Below, one piece after another: positions 1 to 57,162 of a stretch of 64,000 nt of DNA. Positions within the stretch are counted from its first letter, which is position 1; every line of letters begins with the position of its first letter. Source of the stretch: Amphiscolops sp. MND2022 (Eukaryota); assembly GCA_964187785.1 (NCBI GenBank), contig OZ076409.1, positions 2,978,001 to 3,042,000 on the forward strand, read 5' to 3'. The position numbers were made by a program, and so were the translations under genes. A model generated the notes under the pieces. The model saw nothing but the letters and a program-made list of their open reading frames with translations. It had not been told where the DNA came from and did no database searches.

Positions 1-1
1 G

Positions 2-10394: not shown

Positions 10395-10633
10395 CAGATT
10401 TATGAAAATGCGTTGACTTGAAAGTTTTCAAATATGGTCATATGCATAGAAAGGACCTGCATATTTTCGAAAAAAGAATTTAGTAAAAAATTGCGTTCAT
10501 TCCCGAGACAACTTCCGAATAATAATGTTCATATTCGTTTCGTATTAGCATTAACTCTTTGGCTCTACAACAATTCGGACCGAAGACAAATTCGAAACAA
10601 GGCAGATTCGGACTAAATGACAAATTCTGACCA

Positions 10634-11618: not shown

Positions 11619-11872
11619 AAACCAGACGCCCACTAAGCACAGGGAAAGTTTCCGCGAAAATTGTAACGCATCAGCAAGGCTTCGAACCCACGACCTCGTG
11701 TCTGCAAGGCAGACGCACTACCAATTGCGCTGCCAAGTAACTAAAATAGTCAAGTAACTAAAATAGTCGAATGAAGTCTACATTCACCCCATCGTGGAGA
11801 TTTGGCAGAATTTGGAAAAAACGCCACACAGATTATTATTTTCCTCTGCCATTATATACGGGCGGAAAATAA
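11619..11872 (-). mobile_element. Second, more decayed copy of HINE-like family 2
   Basis: Aligns with 10634-10870. Confidence 0.62.
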
Positions 11873-26419: not shown

Positions 26420-26542
26420 ATGCCGCCTTCAGTAGACACTATAGTTAAACTTATTGTCTGCTTTTGGTTTTTTGTTGCTATCATTGCCGGTCTTGCACTT
26501 TTTCTAGACAAATTTTTAATTTCATTCATACCAAAATTTTAA
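26420..26542 (+). CDS. 40-aa hydrophobic upstream ORF (MPPSVDTIVKLIVCFWFFVAIIAGLALFLDKFLISFIPKF)
   Basis: ATG to TAA read by hand; one TM-like stretch; coding status unproven. Confidence 0.35.
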   Translation: MPPSVDTIVKLIVCFWFFVAIIAGLALFLDKFLISFIPKF

Positions 26543-26561
26543 AGTACAATCTTTTTCTTCT

Positions 26562-26801
26562 ATGTTAACAAGTATAGTACTACCTCTTTTTGGACTACTT
26601 AGTATATACCACACTTTCAAAATACTTATCCAATATATACAAAACCCACTTCTTCTTTTCATAAGTATTGTACTTACTATTTTTCTACAAGTTATTTTTA
26701 TAGATCAAATTTTACCATATAATTCACAGTTCAATACAAAATATCTTCTTTTCCGATACATCTATCCTTTATGGCAATCCTATTGTACTAATCAAACTTA
26801 A
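26562..26801 (+). CDS. 79-aa hydrophobic upstream ORF
   Basis: ATG ORF with two hydrophobic stretches, ending 9 nt before the gag ATG. Confidence 0.35.
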   Translation: MLTSIVLPLFGLLSIYHTFKILIQYIQNPLLLFISIVLTIFLQVIFIDQILPYNSQFNTKYLLFRYIYPLWQSYCTNQT

Positions 26802-26810
26802 TATCATATA

Positions 26811-29800
26811 ATGCTCCCCACTCCATTTACACTCTCTACTGATAAAAGACAAAATCGATCTCTTATACAATATGTAACACCTTTTCTACAAAATATTATC
26901 TTTCAGTACACTAACCCACTTCCATTTGAAACAGAACCCCATATATTACACACTATTCCATTAATACGAGAACATTGTGATTCCTACTTATATTATATCC
27001 AATATAAAACACTTGACATAACACCATCACAAACCCCTTTCCAAGTTATTTTTAATCCTGTTAAAGGAATAAACTCTGGAACATTTTATAGAACTATACA
27101 TCCACAGAATATTACACTTTCTATACAAGATGTTTTTCGCACATACATGCAAAAACTCATTGAATTCAATGAACACCAAGACATACCACCTTATCGTCCT
27201 TCTCATTTACAAGAACTCAAACACTTATCTGAATATTTCGAGGTCCCTGATCTTGACACAAAAGTTCAAAGACATGGTAACCCTCATTATTGGCTACAAC
27301 GAGATATATTACAAATAAAGAATTTCGAGTTTAAATTCTTTACAAAAATTACCCTTACAGATGACACTATACCTCAAGTCAAAATTTTTACACATTTCTT
27401 ATTAAAATTCTTTAGATTTAACTACCAATTACTTTGGGAACAAAAAGACCAAAACGCTTATACTAACTTCCCAAAAGCATTAACAGATATAGAACTCTTA
27501 CCATACATCATAGACAATAAAAACAAACACTCACATTACATTGATCTTACTTCATTAAATGTTACACATTTTGAACAAATAAACCTAGATCACAACTTTG
27601 TACTTGAACATTCTGAAACGTCAGATAGTAGACCTTATATTACATCTGATACTTTATATCACACAACTCTTCCAACACAAACATTTAATGTTGAACCTCC
27701 ATATATCAGACAACAATCAGAACAATCAGAACAAGAATCTATAACACAAGAAACACTTGTTCATCTTTTTCAAAATCCTGATTCTCCTCAAGAACAATCA
27801 TCACAGCCACCACAATCACAAACCTCTGATACGCGACACCCAAATCCGTCTGAAACACATACACTTCCCAATACATCAGAATTTTCTGACGAAACAGTAC
27901 AAAATCCACAAAGTTTTACAATAACTGAAGACTCCAATCTTATAACAATTCCTACCCATAATATCACCCAAAGGACTACAAATCAGAATCAAGACAACCC
28001 TTCAAATATCATTACAGACAATACTTCTGTTTTATCTCCATATAATACTAACATTACACAACCCTCTCAGACACAAATAATACCTCCTCGAAATTATGAT
28101 CCACCTCCTATTCCATCTCAATTCTCAGCTCAAATAAATACTCATGTCTCTCCTCAACCAAGCTCATCAAATACACACTCTATTACACAGAACAATAATA
28201 CAGTACATTTCCAAACACCAACTCCACCTTCATCTTCTGAAATACAAACTTCAACTTATACTCCAGCTCAAACTAACCCAGTACAAACTACACAGCCTAC
28301 CTTAAATATTAACACAATTCATTCTAACCCGCTCTCTAACTATACTACAGCCAGACATCTGTCTCGGCCTCCATTACAACCTATATTAACTGACCCATTA
28401 TCATACAATCTCACCAGTACCAATCCAAGTCATACCCAACAATGTCAAATAAATTATAACACACACAACCAATTAAACACTCTTTCTTCCCAGCATACAT
28501 CTAATACAATCCCTCCTACATTACAAACCTCTCACTTTCAAATATCAAATCCTCCTTCAACAACAATTAGAACTAACCCTCACTTTCATAATACTTCAAC
28601 TATCCCTTCAACTAATATTTCAAATCATCCTACATACAATACAACACCTCCATCTACTATGTCTCATAACACTATGTCACATCCAACATATATTAACTCT
28701 TCTACTTCTATATCAGAACCCATTAAACCTTTTGATGGACTCGATCACAACTATACACCTGAAGAATATTTACAACATATTGAGGCACGTGTTACATTCT
28801 CCTTAGGTTTACAACCTACATCAGAACATGAATATAAATTTTGGCACGCTCGCGGCATGGCTTTCATACAATGCTCTTTAACAGGTACAGCACTAAGCTG
28901 GTACATCCGTTTAAACGACACTTATAAACATGATTGGCACGCTTTCGTACAAGCTTTCAAAAAACAATTTTCCTCACAAAAGAACGCTTATTACGCTCAA
29001 GTTGAAGCCCTTAATTTAACAAAGAAAGATAATGAAACAGTACGTCATTTTGCACTCAAAGTTCAACAACTGGTTGAAAAAGGCTGGTGTAATGAGAATG
29101 CATCTACTATAAACCTTAAATGCAATGAAATCTTTACAAAAGGACTTCCAAAAACCCTTAAAGACTTTGCAAATAAAAGACAAGTAAAACACACCTCCAC
29201 TGTCTTAGAACCTTCAATTCCTTTCCATACCTTGGTAAAACTTGTTGACGCTGAGGATATTGCAAACGACAAAATTAGAACACATGATCTTGCACTTGAA
29301 ATCAATAATATTACAAAACAATTGAACACTCAAACCCTAGATCACCCATCTCAAGAACAACTTATGTATACACAACCCAAAGACCCAAATAACAAAAATA
29401 AACCTGCATATAAAAAATACTGCTCATACTGTCATAGAACAAATCACTCCATTTCTGCTTGTTTCAAAAAACAACGAGATGACGAAGATAAACGAGAAGC
29501 ATATGCTCGATCAAAATCTCCACAAAAATCATTCGTTCAGTACTTTCGTTCTCCTTCAAATGACAAAACAAAACACTATGATAATCGATATCGAAGTCGA
29601 AGTACTTCACGAGATAACTCTTATAACCAAAAATATTCACAAGATCGATACCGTTCTACATCTCGAGATAGAGACCGATTTCGTTATGATAAAAGTACTA
29701 CTCCTCCACATTACTCCAGATCCAGATATGACACATATAAACGTGATTCTCGATCTTACCGTTCTCCTTACAGATCTTCTTATAGATCTCCCTATAGACA

Positions 29801-32800
29801 AAATTCTCGTCCTAGATACAGATCACGCTCCTATTCAAGAGATGACAAATTTAACAAATACACAAATTCATATAGACCACCTTCTAGACCAAGAAACTCT
29901 CGATTTTCCAGATCCCGATCACACTCAAATTCTAGAAATAAAATCAATATAATACAACAACAAGAGCAAACAGACCCTATCAAATTTGAAGTACACATGT
30001 ATCACCCAACAGCAATGGCAAATGCTGTCACACCTACAAGCTGGTTTTATACTCTATATGTACACACCCCATCAAGTATAGTACAAAGAGACAACCCATC
30101 TAGATTAGAAATTGCATTCCTCCTAGATAGCGGTGCTTCCATTTCTGTACTCAATTATCCAACATACATAACTCTTACAAAACTTCTCGATATCAGACCA
30201 AATCACACCTCTGATGTCGGACCAACTAGAAATTCCAAAACACTAACTGTTGCAAACCAAACTGAAGTTCCTATTTTACATTATGCAAATATCATTCTGA
30301 ACACCACTATTGACGAAAACTCTCGATACTTTTCAGTACCCTTCGCAGTAGCTGATATTAAATACAATATCCTTGGTACACCATTCTTCGAAGACAATAT
30401 ACAAAACATAAACATACAAGACTTTACACTCGAATTTAAATACCAATCAAAAACACACCCAAATTATGCAAAATTTACAACACTTCTATCTAAAGATTAT
30501 CCATACTTCTCTTACATTTATAGAATTAACTCAAAAACTCAAATACGTCTAAAACCCAAATCTTCCAAAATTGCACACTTTCGGATCAAAAATTATCATA
30601 ATCTTCATTTTACAACTACACCACAAAACCACTTCTTTCCTTCAGTACCTCATACCTATTTTGCTACCAAATTCCGTACAAATTTCAATTTCATTGAAGT
30701 TTTTACAGACGACAAGCCAGACATATGTGCAACTATTATTCAAAACACTTCAAAACATATTGCAACGCTACCTACAGGACATATTGGATACATCGAAGTT
30801 CCAATTACTAATGAAAAACCTAAATTCTTCCAAGTTAACGACATTAATACTTTAATACATAATGTTACTCATACTTATCATCCTGATATTACCGAACCAC
30901 TTCCACAGACCAATTATATTGTACAATATGATGATCCTACAACCCCTCCTCCACAATTCTCTCTACATCAAATTTATATGACAAATGACAACATTCCAAA
31001 CCAAACTTCTCCTCTATATAACGTTCAGCCTACTTCTCATACCTCAGAAAAACGCATTTTCCCTTCTCTTCCATATACTTCTGAAAATCTGAAATTTATT
31101 AACAAATTTAATTTCCAATTTTCTGATCTTACAGACTCAGAATACATTACTCTTTGCAATATGCTACTCAAATATAAAACATGTTATGCAACCCATAAAA
31201 ACGATGTTGGAAAAATTTCAACACCCTTTCGTATACGACTTAAACCAAATGCTCAACTTATGACACAACGTCCTTCCAAAGTTCCTATTCATTATCGAGA
31301 CAAATTAAATGCACTTCTCAAAGAACTTGAAAAATATAACATTATTAAACAAATTGGCTCTTCTCCTCAAGACAAACCCGTTTATGGCACAACTTATTTA
31401 AATCCTCTTATTATAATCCCCAAGGGAGATACAATAAAATGTGTATTAGACGCCCGACATCTTAATTCCAATACAGAACAATCTGATGAATCTTGGCCTA
31501 TTGAACCTCTTGCTCCACAACTAGCACGCGCAAACAAAAAGTACAAATCTGCTATTGACCTTATGTATGCCTATGCACATACACCTCTTGACGAAGATAC
31601 TATAAAACTTACTAGCTTCTCTTCAGGAGACAAACTTTTCGCTTTCATACGAGGCTTTTATGGTCTCAAAGGACTACCAAATTTCTTTACAAAACAAATG
31701 TCTACATTCTTTAAAACTCTTATAGAACAAGGTTTCGCGCTTGTCTACATTGACGATATATTACTTTTATCCGACTCTAAAGAACACATGTTTCAACTCA
31801 TAGAACAATTACACATTATCAGTACAAAAAATAATCTTAAACTAGCCCCTGAAAAATCCTTTTTCATGCTCCTCAAAGTCAAATTCCTTGGACATGAAAT
31901 TGGTTACAATACAATTAAACCAATTCATTCAAAAATTGCAGCTATTCATAAGATCCCTTCTCCAACTGGCAAAGTTGCCTTAATGAGTTTCATTGGCGCA
32001 CTCAATTTTTACACCAAATTTATTGAAAAACTACATATTAACCTCAAACCGTTTTACGATCTTTTACATGAAAACACTCCTTGGAAATGGACAGACGAAC
32101 ACGAAAGTCTATTCCAAAAACTTAAAATGTCTCTCACTTCTGAAACAGAATTAACAATACCGAACACAAAACATCCATTTTTCATTACAGTTGACGCTTC
32201 CCTTATTGGATTAGGCGCTGTCTTATTCCAGTTAAATGAACAAAACAAAATGAAAGTCATATCGTACAACTCTCGTATACTTAACCCACAAGAACAAAAA
32301 CTCTCCACACTTGATAGAGAACTCCTTGGTATAGTACACGCACTTCAAATCTATGAATTTCTTATCATAGGTTCTCCACATCCAATACACATTTTCACTG
32401 ATCACAAACCTTTATTACATTGTTTTACAAAGAAAGGTAATCTCAGCCCTCGTTTCTATAGAGCTCAAATGCAATTGACAAAATTTTCAAAACTCAAAAT
32501 AATTCACACCCCTGGAAAAAATCTCTCTGTTGCTGATGTGTTGAGTCGCTCATTCACAAAAGCTGAATTACAACTTAACCAATTAAAACATAAACACCTC
32601 CCACCACAAATCGATTTTGCACTTTTACAAGATAACACTCTCAAACGTGTACATTACTTAATAAAACATGAAGAAATTTTACCTCATCAAAAACATGACT
32701 CTCATCCAATTCTTGCTGATTATGGTACAGATCAATTCTCTATTCGTATCAATGATAAAGGAAATGACATTATTGTAAAACCCTTACAATCTTTCTCCTT

Positions 32801-33491
32801 CAAATCTGTAACTCCTTTTCAAACCAAATTTAAGACACCTACAAAAAAGAATAACAAAACCCTTCATCAACAATCTCTCTTACTCAATGATACTGACGTT
32901 ACAAGTGATGACGAAGATCATATTTACACCAGAATTCCAAAATCTGACTCTTCCTTCTCACAAGATACTACACTACAAACAGAAAATTATTCTACTCTTA
33001 AACAACCAAGTCACAACACTTCACAGAAATCAATTTCTGCAATAAATGTACAACCAAATTTACCATCTCTCACACACTGTCAACAAATTATACCTTTTTA
33101 TGATACATCATTTTTTAAGTACAAAAACTATTTTCAAGGTTTCTTCCTTCCAGATGATTACTCATTGGACATAAAAACTCTCCAACAACAGCAATCCCAA
33201 GATCCGGTTCTTAGAACTGTTTATTCTTGGTTACTAAACAATGAAAAACCCGAATTTATAACACCTCTTATCACTGGTACTCCATTTCTACATGTATATT
33301 ACAAAAGATTTTCACAACTTTTCATTGATGAATCCACTAATCTTATTAGTCTGTATATTACAAACCCCACTGTTAATAACCAATCCTCTACTCCAAATTT
33401 TGTACTACAGATACTATTCGCATATGCCTACCTTTCCGACTGTTTAAAACTGTCTTTAACAAACTTCATGAACATTCTCACACTGGTATGA
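26811..33491 (+). CDS. Gag-PR-RT-RNase H polyprotein (2226 aa) of the giant element
   Basis: Capsid-like IKPFDG region, CCHC knuckle CSYCHRTNHSISAC (29421-29462), RS-rich tract, protease LLDSGAS (about 30126), RT YIDD (31746), RNase H VDAS/TDHKPL/ADVLSR. Confidence 0.96.
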   Translation: MLPTPFTLSTDKRQNRSLIQYVTPFLQNIIFQYTNPLPFETEPHILHTIPLIREHCDSYLYYIQYKTLDITPSQTPFQVIFNPVKGINSGTFYRTIHPQNITLSIQDVFRTYMQKLIEFNEHQDIPPYRPSHLQELKHLSEYFEVPDLDTKVQRHGNPHYWLQRDILQIKNFEFKFFTKITLTDDTIPQVKIFTHFLLKFFRFNYQLLWEQKDQNAYTNFPKALTDIELLPYIIDNKNKHSHYIDLTSLNVTHFEQINLDHNFVLEHSETSDSRPYITSDTLYHTTLPTQTFNVEPPYIRQQSEQSEQESITQETLVHLFQNPDSPQEQSSQPPQSQTSDTRHPNPSETHTLPNTSEFSDETVQNPQSFTITEDSNLITIPTHNITQRTTNQNQDNPSNIITDNTSVLSPYNTNITQPSQTQIIPPRNYDPPPIPSQFSAQINTHVSPQPSSSNTHSITQNNNTVHFQTPTPPSSSEIQTSTYTPAQTNPVQTTQPTLNINTIHSNPLSNYTTARHLSRPPLQPILTDPLSYNLTSTNPSHTQQCQINYNTHNQLNTLSSQHTSNTIPPTLQTSHFQISNPPSTTIRTNPHFHNTSTIPSTNISNHPTYNTTPPSTMSHNTMSHPTYINSSTSISEPIKPFDGLDHNYTPEEYLQHIEARVTFSLGLQPTSEHEYKFWHARGMAFIQCSLTGTALSWYIRLNDTYKHDWHAFVQAFKKQFSSQKNAYYAQVEALNLTKKDNETVRHFALKVQQLVEKGWCNENASTINLKCNEIFTKGLPKTLKDFANKRQVKHTSTVLEPSIPFHTLVKLVDAEDIANDKIRTHDLALEINNITKQLNTQTLDHPSQEQLMYTQPKDPNNKNKPAYKKYCSYCHRTNHSISACFKKQRDDEDKREAYARSKSPQKSFVQYFRSPSNDKTKHYDNRYRSRSTSRDNSYNQKYSQDRYRSTSRDRDRFRYDKSTTPPHYSRSRYDTYKRDSRSYRSPYRSSYRSPYRQNSRPRYRSRSYSRDDKFNKYTNSYRPPSRPRNSRFSRSRSHSNSRNKINIIQQQEQTDPIKFEVHMYHPTAMANAVTPTSWFYTLYVHTPSSIVQRDNPSRLEIAFLLDSGASISVLNYPTYITLTKLLDIRPNHTSDVGPTRNSKTLTVANQTEVPILHYANIILNTTIDENSRYFSVPFAVADIKYNILGTPFFEDNIQNINIQDFTLEFKYQSKTHPNYAKFTTLLSKDYPYFSYIYRINSKTQIRLKPKSSKIAHFRIKNYHNLHFTTTPQNHFFPSVPHTYFATKFRTNFNFIEVFTDDKPDICATIIQNTSKHIATLPTGHIGYIEVPITNEKPKFFQVNDINTLIHNVTHTYHPDITEPLPQTNYIVQYDDPTTPPPQFSLHQIYMTNDNIPNQTSPLYNVQPTSHTSEKRIFPSLPYTSENLKFINKFNFQFSDLTDSEYITLCNMLLKYKTCYATHKNDVGKISTPFRIRLKPNAQLMTQRPSKVPIHYRDKLNALLKELEKYNIIKQIGSSPQDKPVYGTTYLNPLIIIPKGDTIKCVLDARHLNSNTEQSDESWPIEPLAPQLARANKKYKSAIDLMYAYAHTPLDEDTIKLTSFSSGDKLFAFIRGFYGLKGLPNFFTKQMSTFFKTLIEQGFALVYIDDILLLSDSKEHMFQLIEQLHIISTKNNLKLAPEKSFFMLLKVKFLGHEIGYNTIKPIHSKIAAIHKIPSPTGKVALMSFIGALNFYTKFIEKLHINLKPFYDLLHENTPWKWTDEHESLFQKLKMSLTSETELTIPNTKHPFFITVDASLIGLGAVLFQLNEQNKMKVISYNSRILNPQEQKLSTLDRELLGIVHALQIYEFLIIGSPHPIHIFTDHKPLLHCFTKKGNLSPRFYRAQMQLTKFSKLKIIHTPGKNLSVADVLSRSFTKAELQLNQLKHKHLPPQIDFALLQDNTLKRVHYLIKHEEILPHQKHDSHPILADYGTDQFSIRINDKGNDIIVKPLQSFSFKSVTPFQTKFKTPTKKNNKTLHQQSLLLNDTDVTSDDEDHIYTRIPKSDSSFSQDTTLQTENYSTLKQPSHNTSQKSISAINVQPNLPSLTHCQQIIPFYDTSFFKYKNYFQGFFLPDDYSLDIKTLQQQQSQDPVLRTVYSWLLNNEKPEFITPLITGTPFLHVYYKRFSQLFIDESTNLISLYITNPTVNNQSSTPNFVLQILFAYAYLSDCLKLSLTNFMNILTLV

Positions 33492-35008
33492 AAATCACCT
33501 ACAATACATTCAAACAATACTACTATATTCCATTCCTTGAAAAATGGCTTTCCATTTTCATACATGACTGTATTGAATGTCAACGTAATAAGCACTTCAA
33601 TATGAAAATTCAAACTGCTCCTACACAATCATTTTCAGAACATGCTCCATCTTTCAATTATAGAATCTCAATGGACACTAAAGGACCTATTAACCCTCAT
33701 TCTCATAACAAATCCTATATACATGTAATAATTGACGCTTTTAGTCACTTTGTTGTTACAGTACCCATCAAATCAAACAACGCAAAGACTGCTATCAAAA
33801 CTCTCTTACACCACTGGATTATTAAATTTGGACCACCCATATACCTTGTCACTGATCGTGGATCAGAATATGTTAACAAAGAAATGGCACACCTTTGTAC
33901 ACTTATGGGAATTCGTCATTCTCCTAGAACAGCTTATTCTCCTTGGACAAATGGCCTTGTTGAAGTACAAAACAGAAATCTTGGTACTCATCTTCGAATG
34001 TTCCTACATGACACACCTAAAGATTGGGCATTTCAAGTCCATATGTACGCTTATGCACATAATTCACAACCACTTTCAGAACTCAATGTTTCACCTCACG
34101 AAATTGTTTTCCATACTAGACCCAGAATACCCCTCACATTTGATTTAAACCTTAATCGAGATACCTCCAAGACATGTATTTCACGCTATTGCTCTCAACT
34201 CCCTGAACACTCTCACTATGATAAATCAGATTTAAACCCATTCTTCTATAAGACACTTTCAAAACCCATTCCCCAATGGTTTCTCGCTGTAGAAACTGCT
34301 ATGTTACAAATTTATTCCACAGTCTATGAAAACACCCTACGAAAAATTAATTCACACGCATACATTACAAAAACTTACCACGAAGGTAAACCCCTTCCTA
34401 TTGGTACCTTTGTTTTAAAACGCAATTTTACACATGTTCACTTTTCAGACAAACTCAAACCCCTTCGGATTGGACCATATAAAATTCTTGACAGACTATC
34501 AGACGTCACATATGCACTACTTGCACAAGATGGCTCTACAGTACACGTTCATAGAAATCATTTAATCCCATATTACCCTGAAGAACCACTCTTATATCCA
34601 CATTTGCGTAATTTTATGCGCTTTTCAGACACAACTCAAAACCAAATTCCACAAATTACCAGATATGCAAACAGTGATTCTTCCCCGTTTAATTCTGATG
34701 AATCTTTGTCTGAAGAAGATTCTCAAACATTTATGACACCACCATCATTTAGTACATCCAATCAAAATACACCATCTATAACATCCAATGACAAGTCTTT
34801 AACTTCCTCAACCAATGACAACTCCTTATATAGACATATAATTAATACCCCTCACACTAATGTCCCTAGTGACAGATCGAGACACCCTTCTAACAACCAA
34901 ACAACTTCACTTCCTCCTCTAATTGACAGAACCACAAAAACCACTTATAAACTACGACAACAACCCAAATTAGATTATAGACTTTTTATTACACCTTCAA
35001 AACTGTAA
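33401..35008 (+). CDS. Integrase of the giant element, in the -1 frame relative to gag-pol
   Basis: HHCC (LHEHSHTG...CIEC) begins upstream of the ATG at 33488; DDE core (SMDTKGP, VTDRGSE, GLVE); GPY motif. Confidence 0.94.
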   Translation, partial: CTTDTIRICLPFRLFKTVFNKLHEHSHTGMKITYNTFKQYYYIPFLEKWLSIFIHDCIECQRNKHFNMKIQTAPTQSFSEHAPSFNYRISMDTKGPINPHSHNKSYIHVIIDAFSHFVVTVPIKSNNAKTAIKTLLHHWIIKFGPPIYLVTDRGSEYVNKEMAHLCTLMGIRHSPRTAYSPWTNGLVEVQNRNLGTHLRMFLHDTPKDWAFQVHMYAYAHNSQPLSELNVSPHEIVFHTRPRIPLTFDLNLNRDTSKTCISRYCSQLPEHSHYDKSDLNPFFYKTLSKPIPQWFLAVETAMLQIYSTVYENTLRKINSHAYITKTYHEGKPLPIGTFVLKRNFTHVHFSDKLKPLRIGPYKILDRLSDVTYALLAQDGSTVHVHRNHLIPYYPEEPLLYPHLRNFMRFSDTTQNQIPQITRYANSDSSPFNSDESLSEEDSQTFMTPPSFSTSNQNTPSITSNDKSLTSSTNDNSLYRHIINTPHTNVPSDRSRHPSNNQTTSLPPLIDRTTKTTYKLRQQPKLDYRLFITPSKL

Positions 35009-35109
35009 TCTAGTCATTCTATCTGTTGGCTTACTCAAACCTAGTCACTCCGGTTGAATAAATGTTGAATAAATGAAATAAAACTCATAACAAGTTATCT
35101 TACAGATAA

Positions 35110-36366
35110 CCTGTTGAAAACACTTCAACAATCCTGGATCCTCCCTCTGATATCTCTCCATCAGCTCCAAGTATTCCTTCTACACCTGAATCTTCAGTAT
35201 CAAACACTACAAACTCTAGTAATGTAACTCCTACTACTCCTTCTAAAAGACCCAGATCATACATCTCTGAAACCACTTCTTCTTCACTTCTTCACAGACC
35301 ACCTATAACCGAAATTCCTATAAACACTCGTCCCCAACAAACTCCTATTAACACTCCTATTATACATATACCAAACCCTGAAAGTGTTGAACAATACGTA
35401 ACATACAAACACCCTACAGCTATAAAAACTGTTAGACTCCAACCTCAACTTAATCTAGTACAAATTCCTGATACTGAATATACGAAACTACCTCCACTAA
35501 AATTACCTTCAGAACTTAGCACTACAGAACTTAGCACTACTTCTTCAAAACTTTATCCACCATTAAAACCTCTTCGAAAACCCTCTACATCACTCTCAAA
35601 TCTCTTAGACAATAATACTTCTGACTACGCTCCATCACAAGACACAAGCTCATTTTTTGTACCTAAACATAGATATAATCTTCGTGACCTTCCTTCACGT
35701 AGACTTAGTACAGACACTTCCACACTCAATTTTTCCGCTCTTTCTAGCAATTCTGCATTACGACTTGTAAGACAACACGCTCAACCATTGTCCTCTGACC
35801 CATCATCTTCAGAACTCTTTCAATCTCCTTATTTTACTTCTGGTTTTGAAACCGCTTCATTACTCTCATCAAACCCACAAACTGCATTTCTATCAGGAGA
35901 TCTCTTTTCACAAGTAGTAATCCCTACTCCTGTTCCTGCACATATTAGACTACCTGAATACTATACTGCAGAACATTCTAGACCTCCAACCCCAAATTTT
36001 GCTGATTATCCACTTCGAGTCGATGGTATAATTATCTACGACCCACAAAACGATCCTCGATTTCCAATTCTTGCAGAACGTTTTATTAATAACAACGATC
36101 TCTTATCTCATAAACGTAAAGAAACAGAACTAAAACGTCTTCAGACACCAAATTTAGAACTTAAATTTGAAGTCAAAGTCAAATTTCAAGGATTAAATCC
36201 TCATCCAATATTTCACGTTTCTAAAATAGCACATAAAACCTCTCCTGCTCCTTTTGAAGTAGTACATATTGAATTCGAACGCGATCTTAATATACCCACT
36301 ATCACGTATGGCAACATTGTCTTCTGTAACCCATACTCTGGTCTCAAATATAAAACATCCTTTTAA
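35110..36366 (+). CDS. ATG-less Ser/Thr/Pro-rich ORF (about 418 codons) between integrase and env
   Basis: Stop-free from 35110 to 36363 (the ORF track shows only 35788 onward); overlaps the env start. Confidence 0.55.
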   Translation, partial: PVENTSTILDPPSDISPSAPSIPSTPESSVSNTTNSSNVTPTTPSKRPRSYISETTSSSLLHRPPITEIPINTRPQQTPINTPIIHIPNPESVEQYVTYKHPTAIKTVRLQPQLNLVQIPDTEYTKLPPLKLPSELSTTELSTTSSKLYPPLKPLRKPSTSLSNLLDNNTSDYAPSQDTSSFFVPKHRYNLRDLPSRRLSTDTSTLNFSALSSNSALRLVRQHAQPLSSDPSSSELFQSPYFTSGFETASLLSSNPQTAFLSGDLFSQVVIPTPVPAHIRLPEYYTAEHSRPPTPNFADYPLRVDGIIIYDPQNDPRFPILAERFINNNDLLSHKRKETELKRLQTPNLELKFEVKVKFQGLNPHPIFHVSKIAHKTSPAPFEVVHIEFERDLNIPTITYGNIVFCNPYSGLKYKTSF

Positions 36367-39015
36367 ATCTTACACAACCTCTTATATAACAACTATAATT
36401 CTTTTCTTACATTTCTTTAACTCTACCTTTTCCATACCTATAGCACTCCCTGACACAGAAAACTATCTTCCATCAGATGACCCGAATATTACAAATCTCA
36501 TGGTTTCTCATTATGATTGTGCAAAACAACACAATCTCAGACAATTTAATCTACTTAATGTAAAACAATGCACTGAAGCTCCTTCCGACATTAAACATGC
36601 AAGTGTTAAAGCCCGTGTATATGTCCGAGCAAAAGCTAAACGTATCAAAGCTTTCAAATGTGTTGCTTATGCAAAGAAAGAAAGGAAAATATGCTTTCAA
36701 GGATCTGTCAAATACCGTCGTGTTGATCGAACTGTATGGAATCATAATACATTACCGCTTCCTGTTACTCTTGACCCGGTAGAATGTAAAAACATTATAA
36801 GACATTTAAATGGTACAAATGATAAAATATTGAACAACCTTAACTACAACAAAACATTTACACTCTTAGAAGACCATTATTTTCAAGAACGTTTAGAACA
36901 ATATCAAACTCCTTTCACTGTATATCAATTGAACAAAATGTATACAGGTACATTTACATTTATGCCTGCTGATAAAAACTGGATATATGACCCTACAAAA
37001 AACCCTTATCATAACTGTCCTGCTCATCATCAATTCGAAGTCAACTTAGTTAGTTGGCGACTAGAAGTTTCCGAAATAGAACTTACATATGATGACACAT
37101 CAAATGATATGATAATTGATGGACATACATTACCCTGCTATTTTGCAGATGGCTTCTGTAAACCCACTACAAAAACTCCTTTTACCCTTGTTTGGTTTAA
37201 TGATGATTATTGTCTAATTTTTACCTTACAAGACTTTATTGGACGTATGACTGAAATTGAAGATAGATATTGGATTGAAACCGACTCTTTTGTACATTCT
37301 CCACATTCAGTAAAATCTCAAACTACTTCTGGCATAAAAGGTACAGAACATCCTTATGTTCATGCTCCCCATACACAACATCCAAATAACCCAAGTCTTT
37401 CAAGATTTGAAGTTTTTCCTACAGCACAAACCTTTTGTGGTAAACCAGACCCTCTCTATTCTACACAATACTCAGACTTTTTTGTTACATACACTGATGG
37501 TTTTAATATGCATACAGGACAACCTAATCCTCATTCCATAATTGATGAGTATATCTCTGGTAAAATAGTATTGGACACTTCAAAAAACAAATTTGTGTTT
37601 CCTGCATTAAATGTATCAAACAATTTCGCTACCATTGATTATGATGCACATATAAACACCAAAATTGACTACACTATTAATCATGTTTTTCGATCAATGA
37701 CAGTACAAGAACTAAATACTCTTCATACAATATGTGAACTAGAACGAAATCAACTTCTTACAATACTCGCTATGTCAGTACAAAATCCTCAACTTGCTGG
37801 TTTCCTTTTAACCGGTAATAGAAGTAACTTCTTATACGTTGAAGGCTCAACCGCCTGGCTTTATGACTGTCCTCATTTTTTATCTCCTTTATACAAAGCA
37901 GATAGATGCTTTGACCGTATACCCATACATTTTAAAGATACCTTAATGTACGTTGATCCTATTACAAGACAAACTTATGATTATGCTACACCAATTACAT
38001 GCGATAATAATCCACGTAACATTATTGAACTCGACCCTGATTCAGATGATCAAGACTTTTACATTCTTGGACCTGAACCTATCAAACGTAAACCTCCACT
38101 AATGTTTACACCCTCACAAATCAAAACTACAATACGCCCTAATACTTTTACAGCCCAAGATGCTGGTATATATTCAAATGCAGAACTTGATCAATTTTGG
38201 AACCGTATTTTATTTTCTAAACACTCTGATTCTACACTTCAATTGCTAGGTAAAGCTCTTAGTTATTCATTCATTTCATCTAATACTCCAAATTACGATG
38301 CAGATTCCCCTCAAGACTCTGGTAATCCTTACAATACAATACGAATAGGACTACATGATAAACTCTTGAATTTAACTCCTCTTTTCACACCTACATGGTT
38401 CTCTGATGCTTTTATTGCACTTTTTGATACCCTTGTTACATTCTTACACAATGTGGCATATACTTTTCTACATTTCTTTTTGTACAAGCTACTCTTACAC
38501 TTATTGTTAAACTTTACAAAACAATATCCATTAAATATAATCTTAAAAATAATATTACTTTACTTAGTTCTATTGCACATGGTTTTTTTAATGTTCTTAC
38601 AGCACGAATGGTCAGTGACCTACGTGAGACTCAAAACAAAAAACCCAAAAGTACACTTTTCAAATCCAAATCTTTAGATAACTTTATTGACACTTCTCCA
38701 AATTTAATTAACCATTCTACAGATGTTACTTCCCCTCCACCTTTTTATACCAAACGATCTAACAAAATTCAATTTCCTAAATTTAACTTCTTTCCGAAAC
38801 GACACCACAATTCTCACCATAAAACGACTCCACTTCCTTTCTCTTCTATCCAACATCCCCCACTTCCTAATTATACTCATAAAAACTTTCACTCGAATGA
38901 CAATCTAACCACTCAACATGACACTTTAATTAACAATCCTGTCACTTCTACTACGGATACACCAATTAAAATCTATTCACGAATAAACTATCCTTTTCCT
39001 CCTCCATCTTCTTGA
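36308..39015 (+). CDS. Envelope-like class III (chuvirus G / herpes gB-type) glycoprotein, with a frameshift near 38426
   Basis: Signal-like YITTIILFLHFFNSTFS; HYDC..LLNVKQC; CELERNQL..QNP..G..EG..DC..CFDRIPI..P.TR..C; GIYS..LD; sequons NIT, NGT, NKT, NVS, NRS; TM and tail continue in the frame of ORF 38608..39015. Confidence 0.85.
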
Positions 39016-39261
39016 ACTCTCTCTCAGTTCTTCTGAAACTCTCTTCCAGAACACTCGCCTGCTATTTCTTCACAATTGCTACTCCTCCAACACTTGAAAC
39101 TCTTGCAGAAATTCATCTTCCTCAGTCCAATAATACTTCTCTCATAATAACCATCTTCAAAAACTCTTCAACTAAAGTTGACAAATCCACTCGTTAGTGT
39201 AATTTATAGTACTTTAACTTTAAAGTGCTAAGGCCTCTTGGAATAGATAACACTGTGACTG

Positions 39262-40608
39262 TTGATGCTTTCTCAAACAATGACACAAGCACAAATTGAT
39301 CTACAAACACAGCTTGAACAAGCAACCCCAACAGATCTTATAACAAGACCTCTTTCAAATGATTCTCCTGTTCTCTATATTGACACTTCTGACAAAACAC
39401 CTCCAACTTTTCTTGAACCAATGGAGCACACAAAAGTTGAAAATGAAAATACAAAACCTACTCCTCCACAAGATGATACTGATCATACACAATCGACACC
39501 ACCTCCTCCAAAAAAGCGATATGAAATAATGAAAGATCCAATCTTTCTTTCATCACCAATATATCCTCCTTCAATACCTTCAAAAATTTCACTTTGCACG
39601 AATCGCGATGATCATTTGATCTCAATTCTTTCCACTGACGATTTCGTCTTTAAAGCACAACTAACTTCTCTATATATGCATCCTACGGACTACTCATTTC
39701 GCTTATATGACAAAAATCAAGACTTCTTCACATCCATTGCTTCCAAAATAATGGGTCCATACCAATATTGGCTCGAGAATGGAGTTAAAATTTTCTCTCT
39801 CCAATTCAATTTTCTTAGACCTTCTATATACGATCTCAAAACGGATGAATCTGATCCATCCTTTCTCTCTATAGCACAAAAAGCTTCTCATCATCAGACA
39901 TATACTAAATTTCTACAATACACGAAACCACAAAATTATATTTTTGTCAATTACAAATATACATCACCGTTCACAATGACAAATATGTACACTCTCGATC
40001 ATTCCTGTATAACAGGCTACCTTCGGAACTATGACCCTATAAAGCAATACTTCTGTTTGCTTCCATATAACAATACTTCACGTCCACTTATTGTACCTCA
40101 AGAATATCTTATACATTACGATGATTTTTTGTTGCCTTGCAACATCCCTACTCAAATTGCAAAACCTCTTACTGTCATTAAACACCTCGTTTCTTCTCCA
40201 CTTGACGATAAAGATAGAACATACTATACAGCACTCTACAAACAAACGTATTCCTACAATGAACTTCTCTTTATATCTGCCAAAACTATCTCTTTCATGG
40301 TACAAGCTGAACAAAAAACTGAACAAAAATCACACACTTCGCCCATCAAAAACACTCATGACAAACTTTCCTCTGTATTGACCAATCGAACACTTCGAGA
40401 CATAACAAATTTACTGGAACCCTATAAACGAAACTCCTCTGAAACACCTATCACAACACTCACACATATACTACACTGTTATGACAGAACACACAAACTC
40501 CTTCAGACACTCGATTTAGACTCTCAACGCATCACTCAATCATCCCAAGCAATCCAAACTGCTTTGGAAACTATAACTACTCTTTTTAATTCAACTAATC
40601 TTCATTAA
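39262..40608 (+). CDS. Accessory ORF (448 aa) downstream of env, unknown function
   Basis: Intact long ORF; C-terminus similar to ORF 63641..63979 of the related element. Confidence 0.75.
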   Translation: MMLSQTMTQAQIDLQTQLEQATPTDLITRPLSNDSPVLYIDTSDKTPPTFLEPMEHTKVENENTKPTPPQDDTDHTQSTPPPPKKRYEIMKDPIFLSSPIYPPSIPSKISLCTNRDDHLISILSTDDFVFKAQLTSLYMHPTDYSFRLYDKNQDFFTSIASKIMGPYQYWLENGVKIFSLQFNFLRPSIYDLKTDESDPSFLSIAQKASHHQTYTKFLQYTKPQNYIFVNYKYTSPFTMTNMYTLDHSCITGYLRNYDPIKQYFCLLPYNNTSRPLIVPQEYLIHYDDFLLPCNIPTQIAKPLTVIKHLVSSPLDDKDRTYYTALYKQTYSYNELLFISAKTISFMVQAEQKTEQKSHTSPIKNTHDKLSSVLTNRTLRDITNLLEPYKRNSSETPITTLTHILHCYDRTHKLLQTLDLDSQRITQSSQAIQTALETITTLFNSTNLH

Positions 40609-41018
40609 ACTCCTCTACAGGTAATATAAAGTTTTAAATTTTCTTCTCTGGTACATTCTATGGTACATCTGTGGCACATTCTACAAGGTATTTTCATTTT
40701 TATTTAACAAAAATCTTTACTTTTGAATGAAATCTTAGGACTGTTTTTTAAGTACACTAATTTTTCCTACAGTACATGTCAAAAACTAACTATTTTTTTA
40801 CTCAAAACACTACAATACAAGACATACAAGACAATATAAAATAACACTACATATGGTACATTATAGCACCCATTTTTGTTGTACATCTTTGACTTGATAT
40901 TGTCATTCTTCTTACACTTCCTTTGTTTTAGAAACATCCATTCTTCCTTCTCCTTCATCCAAATTCTTTCAGAACATCCCAACTTCTCTTTCTTCGTATT
41001 CTTCAAACTCTCGTCATA

Positions 41019-41471
41019 ATGGCTCCAAATGCTGAAACAAACGACATTCTAACAATGACTTCAGAATTTTCGAAAGTGCATAGTCTTAAAGCCGCCATAT
41101 TTCATACCATGGCCTTCAAACTCTCGCTTGAGATTCACAAAAACAAAATTACGCCAAAATGTCTCATCGCTTTTTTAAAAGTACTCTACAATGTCACGCA
41201 AATAAAGAAAAAGAAAATCACTTTCGAGCAATACTCGCGAATCCATCTTCAAGGACCTAAAATTGCCATTTGTGAAACGGCATCTAATGTTGTTTTCGTC
41301 CTCAATTCGTCCTTTACTTCAAAGGATCAGTACTTTCGTGCTGCTATCCAAGAAGCTACAGATGCTTTTAATAATATGTTGCAAGATTTCGGGTATACTC
41401 AACAACTAGAACTTTATGACCCGATCCAACACCAACCTCATCCTCCATCGCAAAACTCTCTCTTTCAATAA
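41019..41471 (+). CDS. Accessory ORF (150 aa), unknown function
   Basis: ATG ORF; ITFEQYSRIH matches INFDQYLHIH in ORF 62643..63296. Confidence 0.65.
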   Translation: MAPNAETNDILTMTSEFSKVHSLKAAIFHTMAFKLSLEIHKNKITPKCLIAFLKVLYNVTQIKKKKITFEQYSRIHLQGPKIAICETASNVVFVLNSSFTSKDQYFRAAIQEATDAFNNMLQDFGYTQQLELYDPIQHQPHPPSQNSLFQ

Positions 41472-41700
41472 TCTCTAACACAAACTTCTACTTACTTCTA
41501 TTTCACTCTTTGACTACATTTCGTCTCCAAATTCTTCATCTTCTTTCGATGATGCTTCGAAATGTGGTTGATGATTACTTCAAAGAACTCCTACACATGC
41601 TGAAACTCTTCACTTCACCCACCCACGATGGTCAACAACATCCATCTACACTTTGGGTTCATCGACGTTGCCAAAAATTGTCCTCGTCATCAGTCTCCAC

Positions 41701-41836
41701 ACTTCAAATGCTGACTTCTTGACTGGTCTTCATCCTCCAATGCTGACTTCTTGACTGGTCTTCACACCTCAATTGCTGACTTTGTGAACTGGTCTTCTTC
41801 ACACCTCAACTGCTGACTTCGTGAACTGGTCTTCAT
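41701..41836 (+). repeat. Four tandem 32-39 bp repeats (TGCTGACTT...ACTGGTCTTC) in the 3' UTR of the giant element
   Basis: Directly visible. Confidence 0.85.
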
Positions 41837-42885
41837 ACTTCAATGGCCAATACAAATTTCAAACTGAACTGTATAATCACTTATAATCAATATAACCTGT
41901 AACCCATTTTAATCAAATCATAATATAGACTAGTGCTATATACTCGTATCTAAATTTTAATGCTATATAATCTTATCTAATCTAGTGCTATACACTCCTA
42001 TCTAATCTTTCGCGCTATATAATCTTATTTAATCTTAATCTTATCTAACCATTGTATAACTACCCCCCATTAACCATAATCCTTCCCAAATTTTACCCAT
42101 AATTATTCTTGTAACCACAATATTATCTACTTCCATTGTATTGTGTATAGAACTTTAACATTATCTTACATAATTATCCACTTCAAAATATATTTTAATC
42201 CCCGTCTTTTTACAGAACACAAGTCCTACTTACAGCACAAGAAATTTTCTAAGATTTTTGGACAAAAATTTTTCTTTTACAAAACATGTTCTACAACTTT
42301 CCTTTAACCCTCAAAAGCATTCCCAAAAAATTTTCCAAAATTTTCTTTCGAACTCTTAAAAATTGTCACTTGTAAAATATGTCACTTCTAGTTTTCAAAT
42401 GTTTGAAACTTGAAATAGCCAAAGTTTTTTTTCAACTCTTGCTTCTGCTCTACTCTTCACTTTTGTTGAAAATGAACTCTCACTTCAACCTTGACTTTTC
42501 AAAACTTCTTCACTTTTGGTTCACATACCCGCCAATGTTGGTTCACAATTCATTGACAACTTCACGCTTTAATTCCTCAACTTGAAAAGTTTTCAATGCT
42601 GACTAACTCATGTTGATGAAACAAACTTTTTCAACAAGCCGATGGAAACTGAAAGAACTTGAACCTGTTTGAACCTTTTTGCACCAATTGAATCGTCTAT
42701 GACGTAAGAAGTCAAATCGTCTTAGGTTGTTCTCACTCCTTAAGTATGGTACTCTACAAAACAAAACTCATGCAACTGTAATACAACATATATGAAACAA
42801 ACCCATGCACATAACAAAAACTTCTAGAACTCCTCAAACTCAAAAGTGCATATATGTAATTTTTATTTTTAAATTCCCGGTTGAT

Positions 42886-52039: not shown

Positions 52040-53024
52040 CTGTAAACACGAAACGGTCTTTTGTGCGCGTGATAAAATCTACTTTCATGGGAGAACAACA
52101 CAAAAACATCTTTTCCCCTTTATTACAAGTAGAGTGAAACATTAATTCAATTATTTAGGTTCAGTGGATGATTTTCATTTTCAATTTTGTCCTAAGGAAT
52201 TGGCAAATTGAATTGATTTGATTAGCATTGGGAATTTTTTCGTTTTTCGAAACTTGATCGTCATTCAATTATCTCCATCAACATGCAGAACGATGTTACT
52301 TCTGTCCTTGATTCATTTAATCCCGCGTTAGTGTTCCCGTGAGCTCATATCTTTGGTCATAGCGATCATCATATGCTCTTGGGCCGGTAAAGTCGGGCAT
52401 CAGGTGTACAGAAGCGGCTGGATCTTAGAAGTTTTCAGTGGACACGAGTTCCGATTTTTTAAAGATTTTCGATTTTCTTTTTCTCACTTACGTTGTTTGG
52501 GATTGTTTTCGTATACTACTAACTCGGGAGAACAAAACATTAGACCAGTATAACTCAATTGGACTCATGAACTGTCTTCTTTCAAACCGGAAATTTGCAA
52601 TTTGAACAAAAATTCCTGATTCCTCACTTGAAAAAAATCCTTACATGAGTTTTTGTCTTGACCTACTCAAATGTTTGCTCGCCTCAAGCTACGATGGTAG
52701 TAGACGAAGGTTGAGTTTCAAGAAATAAAGCTGCCTTTATAAATTCGGTCCCGTGGCTTTCAGATATCGACTTAAGTTTTTCTAACGTGAACTTTCTCTT
52801 TCAAGAAACTAGGACTATGAAAAACAATGAAATATATGAAAATATGACTTTAGGAAAGCAGACAAACATTATGCTTGATTGTTTTGAGGTTTCGATTAGG
52901 CAGATTTTTACCTCTGAAAGTCTCTTTTGTTGAATTTATATTCTGTAAGTTGTTCGTTGTTTTGTTTGAAACATTCAATAAATTAATTAAGTCATTACAA
53001 ATAACATTATCAAAAGTAACTAAC

Positions 53025-53620: not shown

Positions 53621-53776
53621 CGTCAATTTGAAAGCGTTCTGAGCCACGTAGTTCTCTGGAAAACTGAAGGAATATTCGGCGCGGCTGAAAACTGGAGGGT
53701 TGTCGTTCAAATCGGTGACTGCTATCTCCACTTCCACGATAGAAACAGTCGGAGTTGTCGGGGATTGATCCCGCGC
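53621..53776 (-). CDS. Cadherin exon E (ARDQSPTT...DLNDNPPVF...NAFKLT)
   Basis: tgaag acceptor, gtaaag donor, 156 bp, phase 0/0. Confidence 0.92.
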
Positions 53777-53781
53777 CTTCA

Positions 53782-55438
53782 GAACGGAATTATTTGACGA
53801 AAGAAAACACCACTTACTACGAAATCCAATTACTACTTTTCCATGTAATCAAAAGAATATTATTATTATTATCATTATATGAATATTATGATATTTTATT
53901 GAAATTGAATTTTCTATTGATCTAGAAAAATGGCAATAAGGTTCAGAACCGGGATAATTTCCACCCTGGAAGAAATCTGCAATATCAACTATTTTTTCTC
54001 CCGAGCGTAGCTTATGCCAACGAAAAGAATGAAATTTTGCTCAAAAAGTTCAAAAAGATGAGAAATTTACATTTTAAGGCTCGTTTTTTTTGGAAAGCCT
54101 CAGATTTCTTCCATTTAAAAAAGTGTAAAGGAGCTAATTGTTTTGTTGTCAAACTCTGGTGGTTTTCAGTCCCATGATTTCTGTACAAAACGTGCAAAAA
54201 AATTCCGAAAGTTTGTGCAAAAATTACTATTCTTTCAAACTTTTGGTATGCTTTCATTATTCGAATAAGATCAACAATCGTCATATTCACGTATACAACC
54301 AACTTTGTTTCTGCTGCGAGAAAGTAACATTCTTTTGTGAAATTAATAGCTCACAAGTTTTTGAAAAAAAATCCAGCTGAGAGATTAAATTTTCTTTCCG
54401 AAATGGAAAAGGGCTTGAAAGAAAAATCGATTCATTTTCAATCGGCATTTTCATTCAGTGATATGTAACAGCAAGCTCTGGTACAGCAATATCAACCGAT
54501 TTTGCAACTTTGACATGTTCAGAAATTTTGTCAAAAATTCTAATCCGATGTGTGACGTGGCACTGAGCATGTGATTGCTCTTTTCGCTGTTTCCACGAAA
54601 TTGGCAGGTACTTCGACAACAAAGAGCAAGAACGAGCAAAAATACGGGCGCGCCGCCATGACAGAAGCCAGAGACGGCAAGAACGACCGAAAATAGACTC
54701 TTTTTGAGGTGCTAACACCGGTTTTATCGATTTTCAGCATTATGCTACCCTATGTAGCGGAAACCGTAAAAATGAGTCTTTTCGCCTAAAGATCCTTGTT
54801 TGGTGCTTGGAGCCCCTGCGCCCCAGCTTTTTAGCTGTGTGGTTTGCCATATTCGTGCCTGTTTTCATGTATTTTCAGTGATTTTGGCTGTATTCAGTAG
54901 CGCTAGCGCTAGTTTAGATCTTATTCCCCAATTTTAGATCTTATTCACATGTCACCCTGGAACTGGAAATTTACCTAATTCTTGGCATTGTTTTTATATG
55001 CTAGTTAAGCGGTGGTCTTTAGAGAGTCAGAAAGATGCCCGTTACTATTAGCAATCAAAGACTAGGACCGGTTGGACAGTATTCGTCGAAGCACCCGCGG
55101 CCCCGGGACGTATTTCACCCCTGGAGGCAAAATGGATCTGTGGCGATGGGCGCCTGTCCCGAGCGATTCACCCATTCCTGCAGGTTCCTCCACCTCTGTT
55201 AACGTGTTAAGCGACCGATAACTGCTTGCCGTTACAATATTTATGCGTTTCGAATATTCATGTTGAATCTTCTGATAATTTTTAATGAACATTTTCGGCC
55301 TAATTAGGACTTCGCGTTTCTAAATGGAACAAAAAATGCCGTTATTTAGCATTACAATTACAAATCGTGAAATTAGGTGCAATTCGGAAAATAAAAATAT
55401 AAAAATTAAATTTTGGAAAAATTTCGATAATTCCGTTC
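53782..55438. mobile_element. TIR-bounded insertion that makes up a cadherin intron (introner-like)
   Basis: 12-bp perfect TIR GAACGGAATTAT; 5-bp direct repeat CTTCA at 53777-53781 and 55439-55443. Confidence 0.7.
54464..55236 (+). mobile_element. Solo LTR of a more distant element-1 relative
   Basis: TGTAACAGCAAGC...GCTTGCCGTTACA termini. Shares TGACGTGGCACT, AGCGCTAGCGCT, AAGATGCCCGTTACT and AGACTAGGACC in the same order as the element-1 LTR. Flanks ATA/ATA. Confidence 0.8.
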
Positions 55439-55817
55439 CTTCACAAACAAAGTGAATTTCTGGTTAAATTCTCTGTCCAAAATTTGCGAAGTTGAAATTT
55501 CTCCAGTCTCGGAATTGATTGAAAAGCTAGTCGTGGAACCGACGAACGAATACAAAACTTCCCCGTTAAGCCCGATGTCCGAGTCGACAGCCGAGACAGA
55601 GCCAACTGCGATTCCGATTGGCTGACCTTCGCTGACTGAAAAGCTGTAATTTGATTGGTCGAACACTGGTTCGTGATCGTTTTGGTCGAGAACTGTAATC
55701 GTTACAGCAGCCGAAGCATCAAAGTTGTCGGATCCGTCATCGCTGACGTAAATTTTGAACGAGTATGAGTCTTTCGATTCTCGGTCTAGCGCATTCTTCA
55801 CTAGAATTGACGCTTCA
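55439..55817 (-). CDS. Cadherin exon D (EASILVKNALDRESKD...LDREFNQKFTLFVK)
   Basis: tttcag acceptor; LDRE and DQNDHEPVF motifs. The 3' boundary is inferred from the cadherin consensus (GA donor at 55438); an alternative GT donor lies 6 nt upstream. Confidence 0.9.
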
Positions 55818-57070: not shown

Positions 57071-57162
57071 TTGTCAGCCATTTGCAGAGTGAAAGAGGCT
57101 GCATCGGGATCTTGCTCAGGGTCCATGGCGTAAAACAGGTCGTCACCATCTCCGTCATACGC
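57071..57162 (-). CDS. Cadherin exon C (AYDGDGDDLFYAM...FTLQMAD)
   Basis: ttttcag acceptor, gtaagt donor, 92 bp, phase 0 to 2. Confidence 0.88.

Follow-up and report, generated by a model that had tools for sequence, protein, structure and literature searches.

An insertion bounded by terminal inverted repeats as the possible origin of an intron in a Fat-like cadherin gene of Amphiscolops sp. MND2022

How did an intron whose two ends coincide exactly with terminal inverted repeats (TIRs) and with a short direct repeat come to lie within a cadherin gene, and by which splice sites could it be removed? The question is raised by a 64,000-nucleotide stretch of contig OZ076409.1 of Amphiscolops sp. 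MND2022 (assembly GCA_964187785.1, positions 2,978,001 to 3,042,000 of the forward strand), hereafter called the window. A giant Fat-like cadherin gene on the minus strand covers most of the window, and the intron in question separates two of its exons, named D and E here. Recent intron gains are rare in animals, and their mechanism is seldom still legible in the sequence. In the D-E case, the sequence allows the exon that preceded the insertion to be restored base by base, and the conceivable splice outcomes, of which there are two, differ in the protein (FARD versus FVKARD). As judged from the sequence, it is plausible that the D-E insertion represents a recent intron gain.

Anatomy of the insert

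The cadherin repeats were delimited with a custom hidden Markov model (HMM) of 109 positions, built from 223 homologue repeats, to which all minus-strand open reading frames (ORFs) were mapped; HMM positions are given below as coordinates within the repeat. The splice sites defined in the window comprise nine donors and seven acceptors, all of the form GT...YAG with T-rich tracts. The exons of the gene chain together after the recovery of two small canonical exons:

57071-57162: small exon C2
51962-52039: small exon F2

These exons hold the repeat pieces that had appeared to be missing, and the idea of a pseudogene was thereby ruled out. As the gene is otherwise intact and has canonical introns, it is not decaying. 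The features of the D-E region are as follows, in the direction of transcription, with a slash marking a splice junction:

55445-55817, minus strand: cadherin exon D, HMM 59-109 plus 1-78 (or 1-80), with the acceptor tgatatttcag/TGAAGC at 55817; the exon would end at 55439 if a GA donor were used
55443-55444, minus strand: candidate canonical GT donor (TTT/GTGAAG), phase 0, between HMM 78 and 79
55439-55443, minus strand: 5' TGAAG copy, a putative target-site duplication (TSD), within the Val-Lys codons GTG AAG
55427-55438, minus strand: 5' TIR, GAACGGAATTAT, whose first two bases are the proposed GA donor (AAG/GAACGG)
55240-55426, minus strand: left arm of the insert, AT-rich, single copy and with no Pfam match
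54464-55236, minus strand: solo long terminal repeat (LTR) of 773 bp, TG...CA, with TAT at 55237-55239 and at 54461-54463
53794-54460, minus strand: right arm of the insert, single copy, carrying a T-rich tract (ttttctttcgtc) some 22-36 nt before the AG
53782-53793, minus strand: 3' TIR, ATAATTCCGTTC, forming the 12-nt inverted pair with GAACGGAATTAT
53777-53781, minus strand: 3' TGAAG copy, whose last two bases are the sole AG in the final 40 nt and form the putative acceptor, AAG rather than YAG
53621-53776, minus strand: cadherin exon E, starting at HMM 81 (ARD...), with the donor ACG/GTAAAG

Read along the minus strand, the order is thus ...ACT TTG TTT G, TGAAG, GAACGGAATTAT, about 1.6 kb of non-coding DNA, ATAATTCCGTTC, TGAAG and GCG CGG GAT, at which coding resumes. 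In a repeat search of the window, the two TIRs formed a 12-nt inverted repeat that is 100% complementary, has 1633 nt between its arms and cannot be extended. Its outer edges (55438-55427 and 53793-53782) are abutted by the identical 5-bp direct repeats TGAAG. A 12-bp TIR with a 5-bp TSD had been described in the initial annotation of this DNA, and its letters and coordinates proved correct, the pair being perfect. The combination of a TIR with a fixed-length TSD is that of class II TIR transposons and miniature inverted-repeat transposable elements (MITEs). Together, the TIRs and the TGAAG copies bound the entire gap between the two cadherin exons, and there is no older intron sequence outside the TIRs. 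Without the solo LTR, the insert is 881 bp long.

Could such a structure be fortuitous? The real window contains 44 outward-maximal perfect inverted repeats of at least 12 nt whose arms are 100-3000 bp apart, and 2 of the 44 carry a 5-bp flanking direct repeat, namely the D-E insert and a repeat at 19958-20134. Thirty Markov-simulated windows held 20.4 inverted-repeat pairs on average, none of them with a 5-bp direct repeat. The odds of meeting a TIR with a 5-bp direct repeat anywhere in a window are thus roughly 3%. For both outer edges of the TIRs to coincide to the base with the points where homology stops and resumes, we estimate a chance of about 1e-8 to 1e-9 per intron. The D-E structure is called non-random here because its outer edges match, to the base, the places where protein homology ends and restarts.

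The repeat at 19958-20134 is also a perfect 12-nt inverted repeat (TTGTTGATATCA), with the direct repeat TTCTT; it spans about 180 bp and lies inside the region of a retrotransposon pol ORF described below.

Excision of the insert and the coding frame

Removal of the insert together with one copy of TGAAG yields a continuous exon with no residual intron and with the spacing that is usual for cadherin repeats. The search of 120 homologues gave 505 DRE...AxD motifs; 467 of these (92.5%) have the Asp at offset 12, and none has it at offset 10. The sequence FVKARD places it at offset 12, whereas FARD places it at offset 10. The spacing DRE-x4-aromatic-x-L-x-V-x-A-x-D is accordingly kept in the excision product, which is also the product of a GA-AG splice, and not in the product of a GT-AG splice. 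Two statements of the initial annotation are borne out here: that removal of the element and one TGAAG restores the cadherin spacing, which agrees with the 467 homologous repeats, and that the nearest in-frame GT (55444) would delete Val-Lys, as this sole in-frame GT gives FARD. Furthermore, Val-Lys is covered by the alignments with homologues and with the repeat HMM, which extend to 55442 or 55439; this indicates that GTG AAG was coding before the interruption. No argument for equating the intron with the insert is stronger than the seamless canonical exon obtained on excision. As the whole intron is the insert, a gain by insertion is favoured, in which the duplicated target provides the 3' AG.

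In our preferred reading, to which we give an even chance, a cadherin exon that was once continuous received a one-off insertion bounded by TIRs, which would be spliced out through the weak GT of the valine codon and the AG of the TSD. According to this reading, 881 bp of DNA would have landed in a continuous Fat-like cadherin exon, between the codons for ..Phe-Val-Lys and Ala-Arg-Asp.., and would have duplicated the 5-bp target TGAAG in the manner of a cut-and-paste DNA transposon. The gene would have survived since the insert could be removed from the pre-mRNA: the 3' TGAAG would offer the sole nearby AG acceptor, and the T-rich tract within the insert would serve as polypyrimidine tract. 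The donor would most probably be the GT of the valine codon (TTT/GTGAAG, 55444), so that the mature protein would lose Val-Lys from one beta-strand of one among many cadherin repeats. Later, an LTR retrotransposon would have inserted into this intron and been reduced to a solo LTR. A donor furnished by either the element or the exon, together with a 3' AG from the TSD, is documented in other organisms (PMC11282704, PMC9860276). The initial annotation had likewise proposed an intron gain by a TIR element whose target duplication created the 3' AG; its insertion origin and the derivation of the AG from the duplicate are supported, and a transposon family for the element did not emerge. What weighs against the preferred reading is the quality of the GT donor and of its product, the want of relatives for the insert, the position of the GT within the repeat and the lack of close homologues; each is taken below with the alternative on which it bears.

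Choice of donor

Spliced in silico from GT (55444) to AG (53777), the intron measures 1668 nt and the product reads ..FARD.. with no stops; from GA (55438) to the same AG, it measures 1662 nt and the product reads ..FVKARD.., again with no stops. Both sites were scored with position weight matrices (PWMs) based on splice sites of this genome, 29 donors and 27 acceptors in all. The cadherin gene contributed nine donors and seven acceptors, and five myosin genes gave another 20 of either type; among the myosin sites, a few weak ones are probably wrong choices of the script. The GT site TTT/GTGAAG scored -0.6 bits, below all 29 reference donors, and its flanks alone scored -4.6 bits, under the lowest reference donor (-3.7). 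Moreover, the spacing of the GT-AG product is unseen in the 505 repeats. The D-E acceptor scored 3.6 bits, with only 3 of the 27 reference acceptors lower, and its A at position -3 occurs in 1 of the 27. Both D-E splice sites are thus outliers, as would be expected of a young, unoptimised intron. The elements of an ordinary U2-type intron, an in-frame GT...AG pair and a pyrimidine tract, are nevertheless present.

The same insertion might instead be spliced, as the initial annotation had proposed, at AAG/GA (55438) to the AG derived from the TSD, as a GA-AG intron that restores FVKARD. Its product has the offset-12 spacing of 467 of the 505 repeats, as against none for the GT product, in a cadherin gene that looks functional. 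Outside position +2, the GA site looks like a normal donor for this genome: AAG/GAACGG scored without +1 and +2 reaches 3.8 bits against a donor median of 3.9, compared with -4.6 for the flanks of the GT. It also has the AG at the exon end, the GA at the intron start and the A at +3, of which the exon-end AG and the A at +3 are near-obligate features of the GA/GG donors of Eurytemora affinis (PMC5714493). Against these points stands the extreme rarity of GA donors beyond a few lineages, with 14 of 222,263 human introns (quoted in PMC5714493), and the C at +4 and the G at +6 mismatch U1. Judged from sequence, the splice context favours the GA site, but an A at +2 is almost never tolerated.

The other introns of the genome offer a further comparison. 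Twenty of 23 myosin junctions and all nine cadherin junctions resolve as GT-AG, and none of these 29 needs a GA or GG donor; the remaining three myosin junctions did not resolve, and canonical donors are visible near them. A genome-wide frequency of about 10% is therefore disfavoured (0.9^29 is about 0.05), whereas one of 1% is not. The U1 genes show no adaptation to GA: among 20, the first ten bases are canonical in 13, and none is altered at the base that pairs with +2, so that none is complementary to a GA donor. Because no resolved junction needs GA or GG and none of the 20 U1 genes could pair with an A at +2, we prefer GT-AG to GA-AG. On the sequence evidence, use of the GT donor is probable and use of the GA donor improbable, and what is left falls to retention or skipping. 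The full GA-AG alternative is accordingly thought unlikely, and there is a similarly slim chance that such an intron was made in a single step by a TIR element, the TSD supplying both the exonic AG for the donor and the AG of the 3' acceptor.

The U1 and donor collections also contained variants of another kind. Three of the 20 U1 genes start with ATACTAACCTG, a change from T to A at the base pairing with intron position +3, and 12 of the 29 collected donors begin with GTT, for example GTTAGT, about 3 of these picks being doubtful. The ATACTAACCTG U1 genes and the GTT donors may belong together, as a U1 variant and the class of donors matched to it.

Search for related elements

The initial annotation had proposed a search for further elements bounded by the same TIR and by 5-bp TSDs, and none was found in the 1.07-Gb genome, whether the query was the whole intron, an arm, a terminus or a TIR joined to its TSD. 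The arms of the insert, queried as 207 and 686 bp, match only themselves, apart from one further match of the right arm at 71% identity over 123 bp. The 24-nt 5' end (up to two mismatches) is unique in the genome except for one low-complexity near-match that has no inverted partner, and the 27-nt 3' end (up to three mismatches) found only itself. The 17-mers that join TIR and TSD occur 7 and 9 times with at most one mismatch, compared with 2 and 4 times for their controls, which is about chance. The bare 12-mer GAACGGAATTAT is more frequent, with 176 occurrences in the genome against 35 for the reversed control. Twenty of its other sites were sampled: nine lie inside one unrelated dispersed repeat, four fall into two duplicate pairs, and the flanks of the others are unrelated. 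The excess over the reversed control is thus explained by GAACGGAATTAT being internal to an unrelated dispersed repeat, and no other inverted pair of the 12-mer was seen among the 100 sites listed. The initial annotation would have been given up if complementary DNA used another junction and no other copy of the TIR existed; the second of these two joint conditions is what the genome search presents.

An exact match of 19 nt, comprising the 3' TIR, TGAAG and two further nucleotides, was seen at C1:3967118-3967136, about 0.9 Mb away. It lacks a partner TIR, and the 5 kb on either side show no other similarity, so that it was treated as chance.

No transposase remnant was found either: four ORFs of at least 63 amino acids overlap the intron, including both in the single-copy right arm, and none has a Pfam match at E ≤ 0.01. 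A missing transposase is expected of a non-autonomous element. Neither related copies nor an autonomous partner sharing the termini, as would mark a class II transposon or MITE, came to light. Transib-type elements make 5-bp TSDs but start with CAC. An Rfam scan gave only one sub-threshold match to a bacterial small RNA, which was dismissed, and local RNA folds at both intron ends are unremarkable. There is a tension here, in that a perfect TIR and TSD imply youth, yet sister copies are absent, and this leaves room for a one-off mobilisation or for the capture of a fragment during break repair.

The latter possibility would make the insert filler DNA captured at a staggered double-strand break, a gain of the non-homologous end joining type, with the 5-bp repeat resulting from fill-in of the overhangs. 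A single-copy insert with neither family nor transposase would suit it well, and short direct repeats round new introns are its proposed signature in the available text of PMC3020277. It would, on the other hand, leave unexplained why the filler should end on both sides in a perfect 12-bp inverted repeat, and a captured genomic fragment should have a source copy, of which the genome search found none. We therefore regard break repair as a rather unlikely origin.

Intron positions in paralogous repeats

The GT at 55444 corresponds to HMM 78/79 in phase 0, which is an intron position in at least two paralogous repeats of the same gene:

52040-53024, minus strand: phase-0 intron between exons F and F2 at HMM 78/79, AAA/GTTAGT ... 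tttacag/GCC, with the canonical spacing kept
9793-13139, minus strand: phase-0 intron between exons L and M at HMM 78/79, CAG/GTAAGG ... ttttcag/GTA GCT, with exon M starting at Val79

The intron after exon H probably shares this position. Other positions also recur from repeat to repeat, namely HMM 26/27 in phase 0, 58/59 in phase 2, 88/89 and 100/101, and this pattern suggests that the repeat unit may have carried introns before it multiplied.

The D-E intron might then be an old one at the paralogous position, whose acceptor slid by 6 nt, the TIR and TGAAG being coincidental. The site is exactly that of the F-F2 and L-M introns and probably of the one after exon H, the recurrent positions (26/27, 58/59, 78/79 and 88/89) would be those of introns older than the multiplication of the repeats, and an insert with no family would raise no difficulty. 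The cost of this explanation lies in a coincidence of about 1e-8, since 17 plus 17 matching bases would have to stand exactly at both ends of the intron. It also needs a loss of two residues at the acceptor that the paralogues do not show: exon E begins at HMM 81, two residues later than the exons downstream of the paralogous introns, which begin at 79 (Val79 in exon M, Ala79 in exon F2). In addition, the match at 78/79 is to some extent built in: the residue at 79 is a conserved Val, and every Val codon in phase 0 gives a GT; we estimate its chance at about 1 in 12. The insert shows no sequence similarity to the paralogous introns or to the other introns of the cadherin gene. An old intron is, on balance, improbable.

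Homologues and integrity of the gene

A homologue or paralogue with an uninterrupted exon would have borne directly on the insertion. An orthologue search among 1.84 billion representatives returned generic giant cadherins only, the best local identity being 45.7%. In a protein search with exon D, longer proteins did not exceed 44% identity, and proteins of near its length yielded no match at E ≤ 1e-10; in the search of the animal's own genome for a close paralogue or an empty-site copy, the best non-self match reached 41%. The cadherin gene is, as far as these sequence comparisons indicate, lineage-specific, with no homologue above 46% identity in two protein databases.

This bears on one further alternative, in which the insert is not cleanly removed and is a disabling or exon-skipping insertion in this haplotype, the gene or the repeat being dispensable. 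Such an outcome would be in keeping with a lineage-specific gene and with the poor scores of both candidate donors and of the acceptor. It is harder to reconcile with the state of the gene, as all other examined exons, the small ones included, are open and well formed. Furthermore, the insertion is old enough for an LTR element to have arrived and recombined to a solo LTR, yet the neighbouring exons show no visible decay. We consider this alternative doubtful, and the preferred reading remains that of a one-off insertion removed by splicing.

The solo LTR inside the insert

The LTR at 54464-55236 is 99.1-99.5% identical to 29 other copies that were fetched; the first look at the family gave 2096 candidates at about 99% identity, of which 40 were scored. 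About half of the 29 copies have one shared internal sequence after them or a second one before them, and some flank internal regions in pairs 7-16 kb apart, which marks them as the LTRs of full elements. The copy within the insert thus has the TG...CA ends, the flanking duplication and the identity to LTRs of full elements that are characteristic of a solo LTR. The family is very young and abundant, and the LTR entered after the host insert. The initial annotation had been right to see a later solo LTR insertion, as the 773-bp copy is flanked by TAT on both sides and nested in the insert.

Four solo-looking copies of the family have a flanking duplication of only 3 bp (TAT, CAT, AAT and TCT), which is shorter than expected for LTR elements.

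Other features of the window

Further retroelement sequences were observed in the introns of the cadherin gene, and base composition varies along the window:

18093-20492, minus strand: open frame of 800 amino acids with aspartyl protease, reverse transcriptase and RNase H, a retrotransposon pol in a cadherin intron
about 26000-42000: strongly GC-skewed stretch of 16 kb (skew about -0.45) that lacks tandem repeats, probably nested retroelements inside a 22-kb intron
30000-30480, plus strand: sample resembling retroelement coding sequence, with a DSG protease motif
1-8000: GC-rich (47-57%, against about 37% elsewhere)

Comparison with known systems

The D-E intron is a single case, with no transposon family behind it and with splicing that is predicted from its sequence, and it may be set beside several kinds of intron gain described in other organisms. 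Introner elements, such as IE1 of Micromonas pusilla, are presented in the available text of PMC11282704 and PMC9860276 as MITE-like, with a TIR, a TSD at the junctions and a 3' AG co-opted from the TSD; animal introners are reported there from only two taxonomic groups (PMC9860276). The D-E insert resembles them, as far as those descriptions go, in that TIRs stand at the intron ends and adjoin a short TSD at the exon-intron junctions, in that the 3' AG comes from the target duplicate and in that the whole intron is the element. Unlike introners, which in the same descriptions form families of tens to thousands of similar copies and bring their own GT or GC donor, the D-E insert is present in a single copy and has no canonical GT or GC splice site at its 5' end: the element starts with GAACGG, and the sole in-frame GT is exonic and lies 6 nt upstream.

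Non-canonical introns of Fritillaria borealis, Amoebophrya and euglenids also have TIR ends and TSD-like repeats at their junctions, according to the part of PMC11282704 that treats them. In all three lineages, however, such introns are numerous and the splicing machinery is altered, whereas the other introns examined here are ordinary GT-AG introns. Introns gained through error-prone repair of double-strand breaks share with the D-E intron the short direct repeats that flank a new intron; within the available text of PMC3020277, TIRs do not figure among the predictions of that model, in contrast to what is seen here.

Singular transposon-derived introns are reported from many eukaryotes in the available portion of PMC11282704. 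In these, as described there, the one-off insertion of a transposable element (TE) into an exon is tolerated because the TE itself, or the sequence around it, provides splice-like signals, and in the preferred reading the D-E insertion is of this form. It differs from the reported cases in that no TE family was found for the insert and its splicing is a prediction from sequence. If the GT-AG splice is true, an insertion into an exon would have been rescued at a cost of two residues in a strictly spaced domain.

A last comparison concerns the copepod Eurytemora affinis, in which GA/GG donors account for about 10-12% of introns, as confirmed by RNA sequencing (PMC5714493). This genome shows no sign of that habit: none of the 29 other introns here needs GA or GG, and the GA junction of D-E is putative. 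The junction is nevertheless like the GA introns of the copepod in having an exonic AG and an intronic GA with A at +3, and in belonging to an apparently recent, lineage-specific intron (PMC5714493). Neither a TE nor a TSD is invoked in that paper to account for the copepod introns. If the GA-AG splice were true here, non-canonical donors would be tied to target-site duplications, and the AG/GA(A) context of the recently gained GA introns of the copepod could have been left behind by insertions of the same kind.

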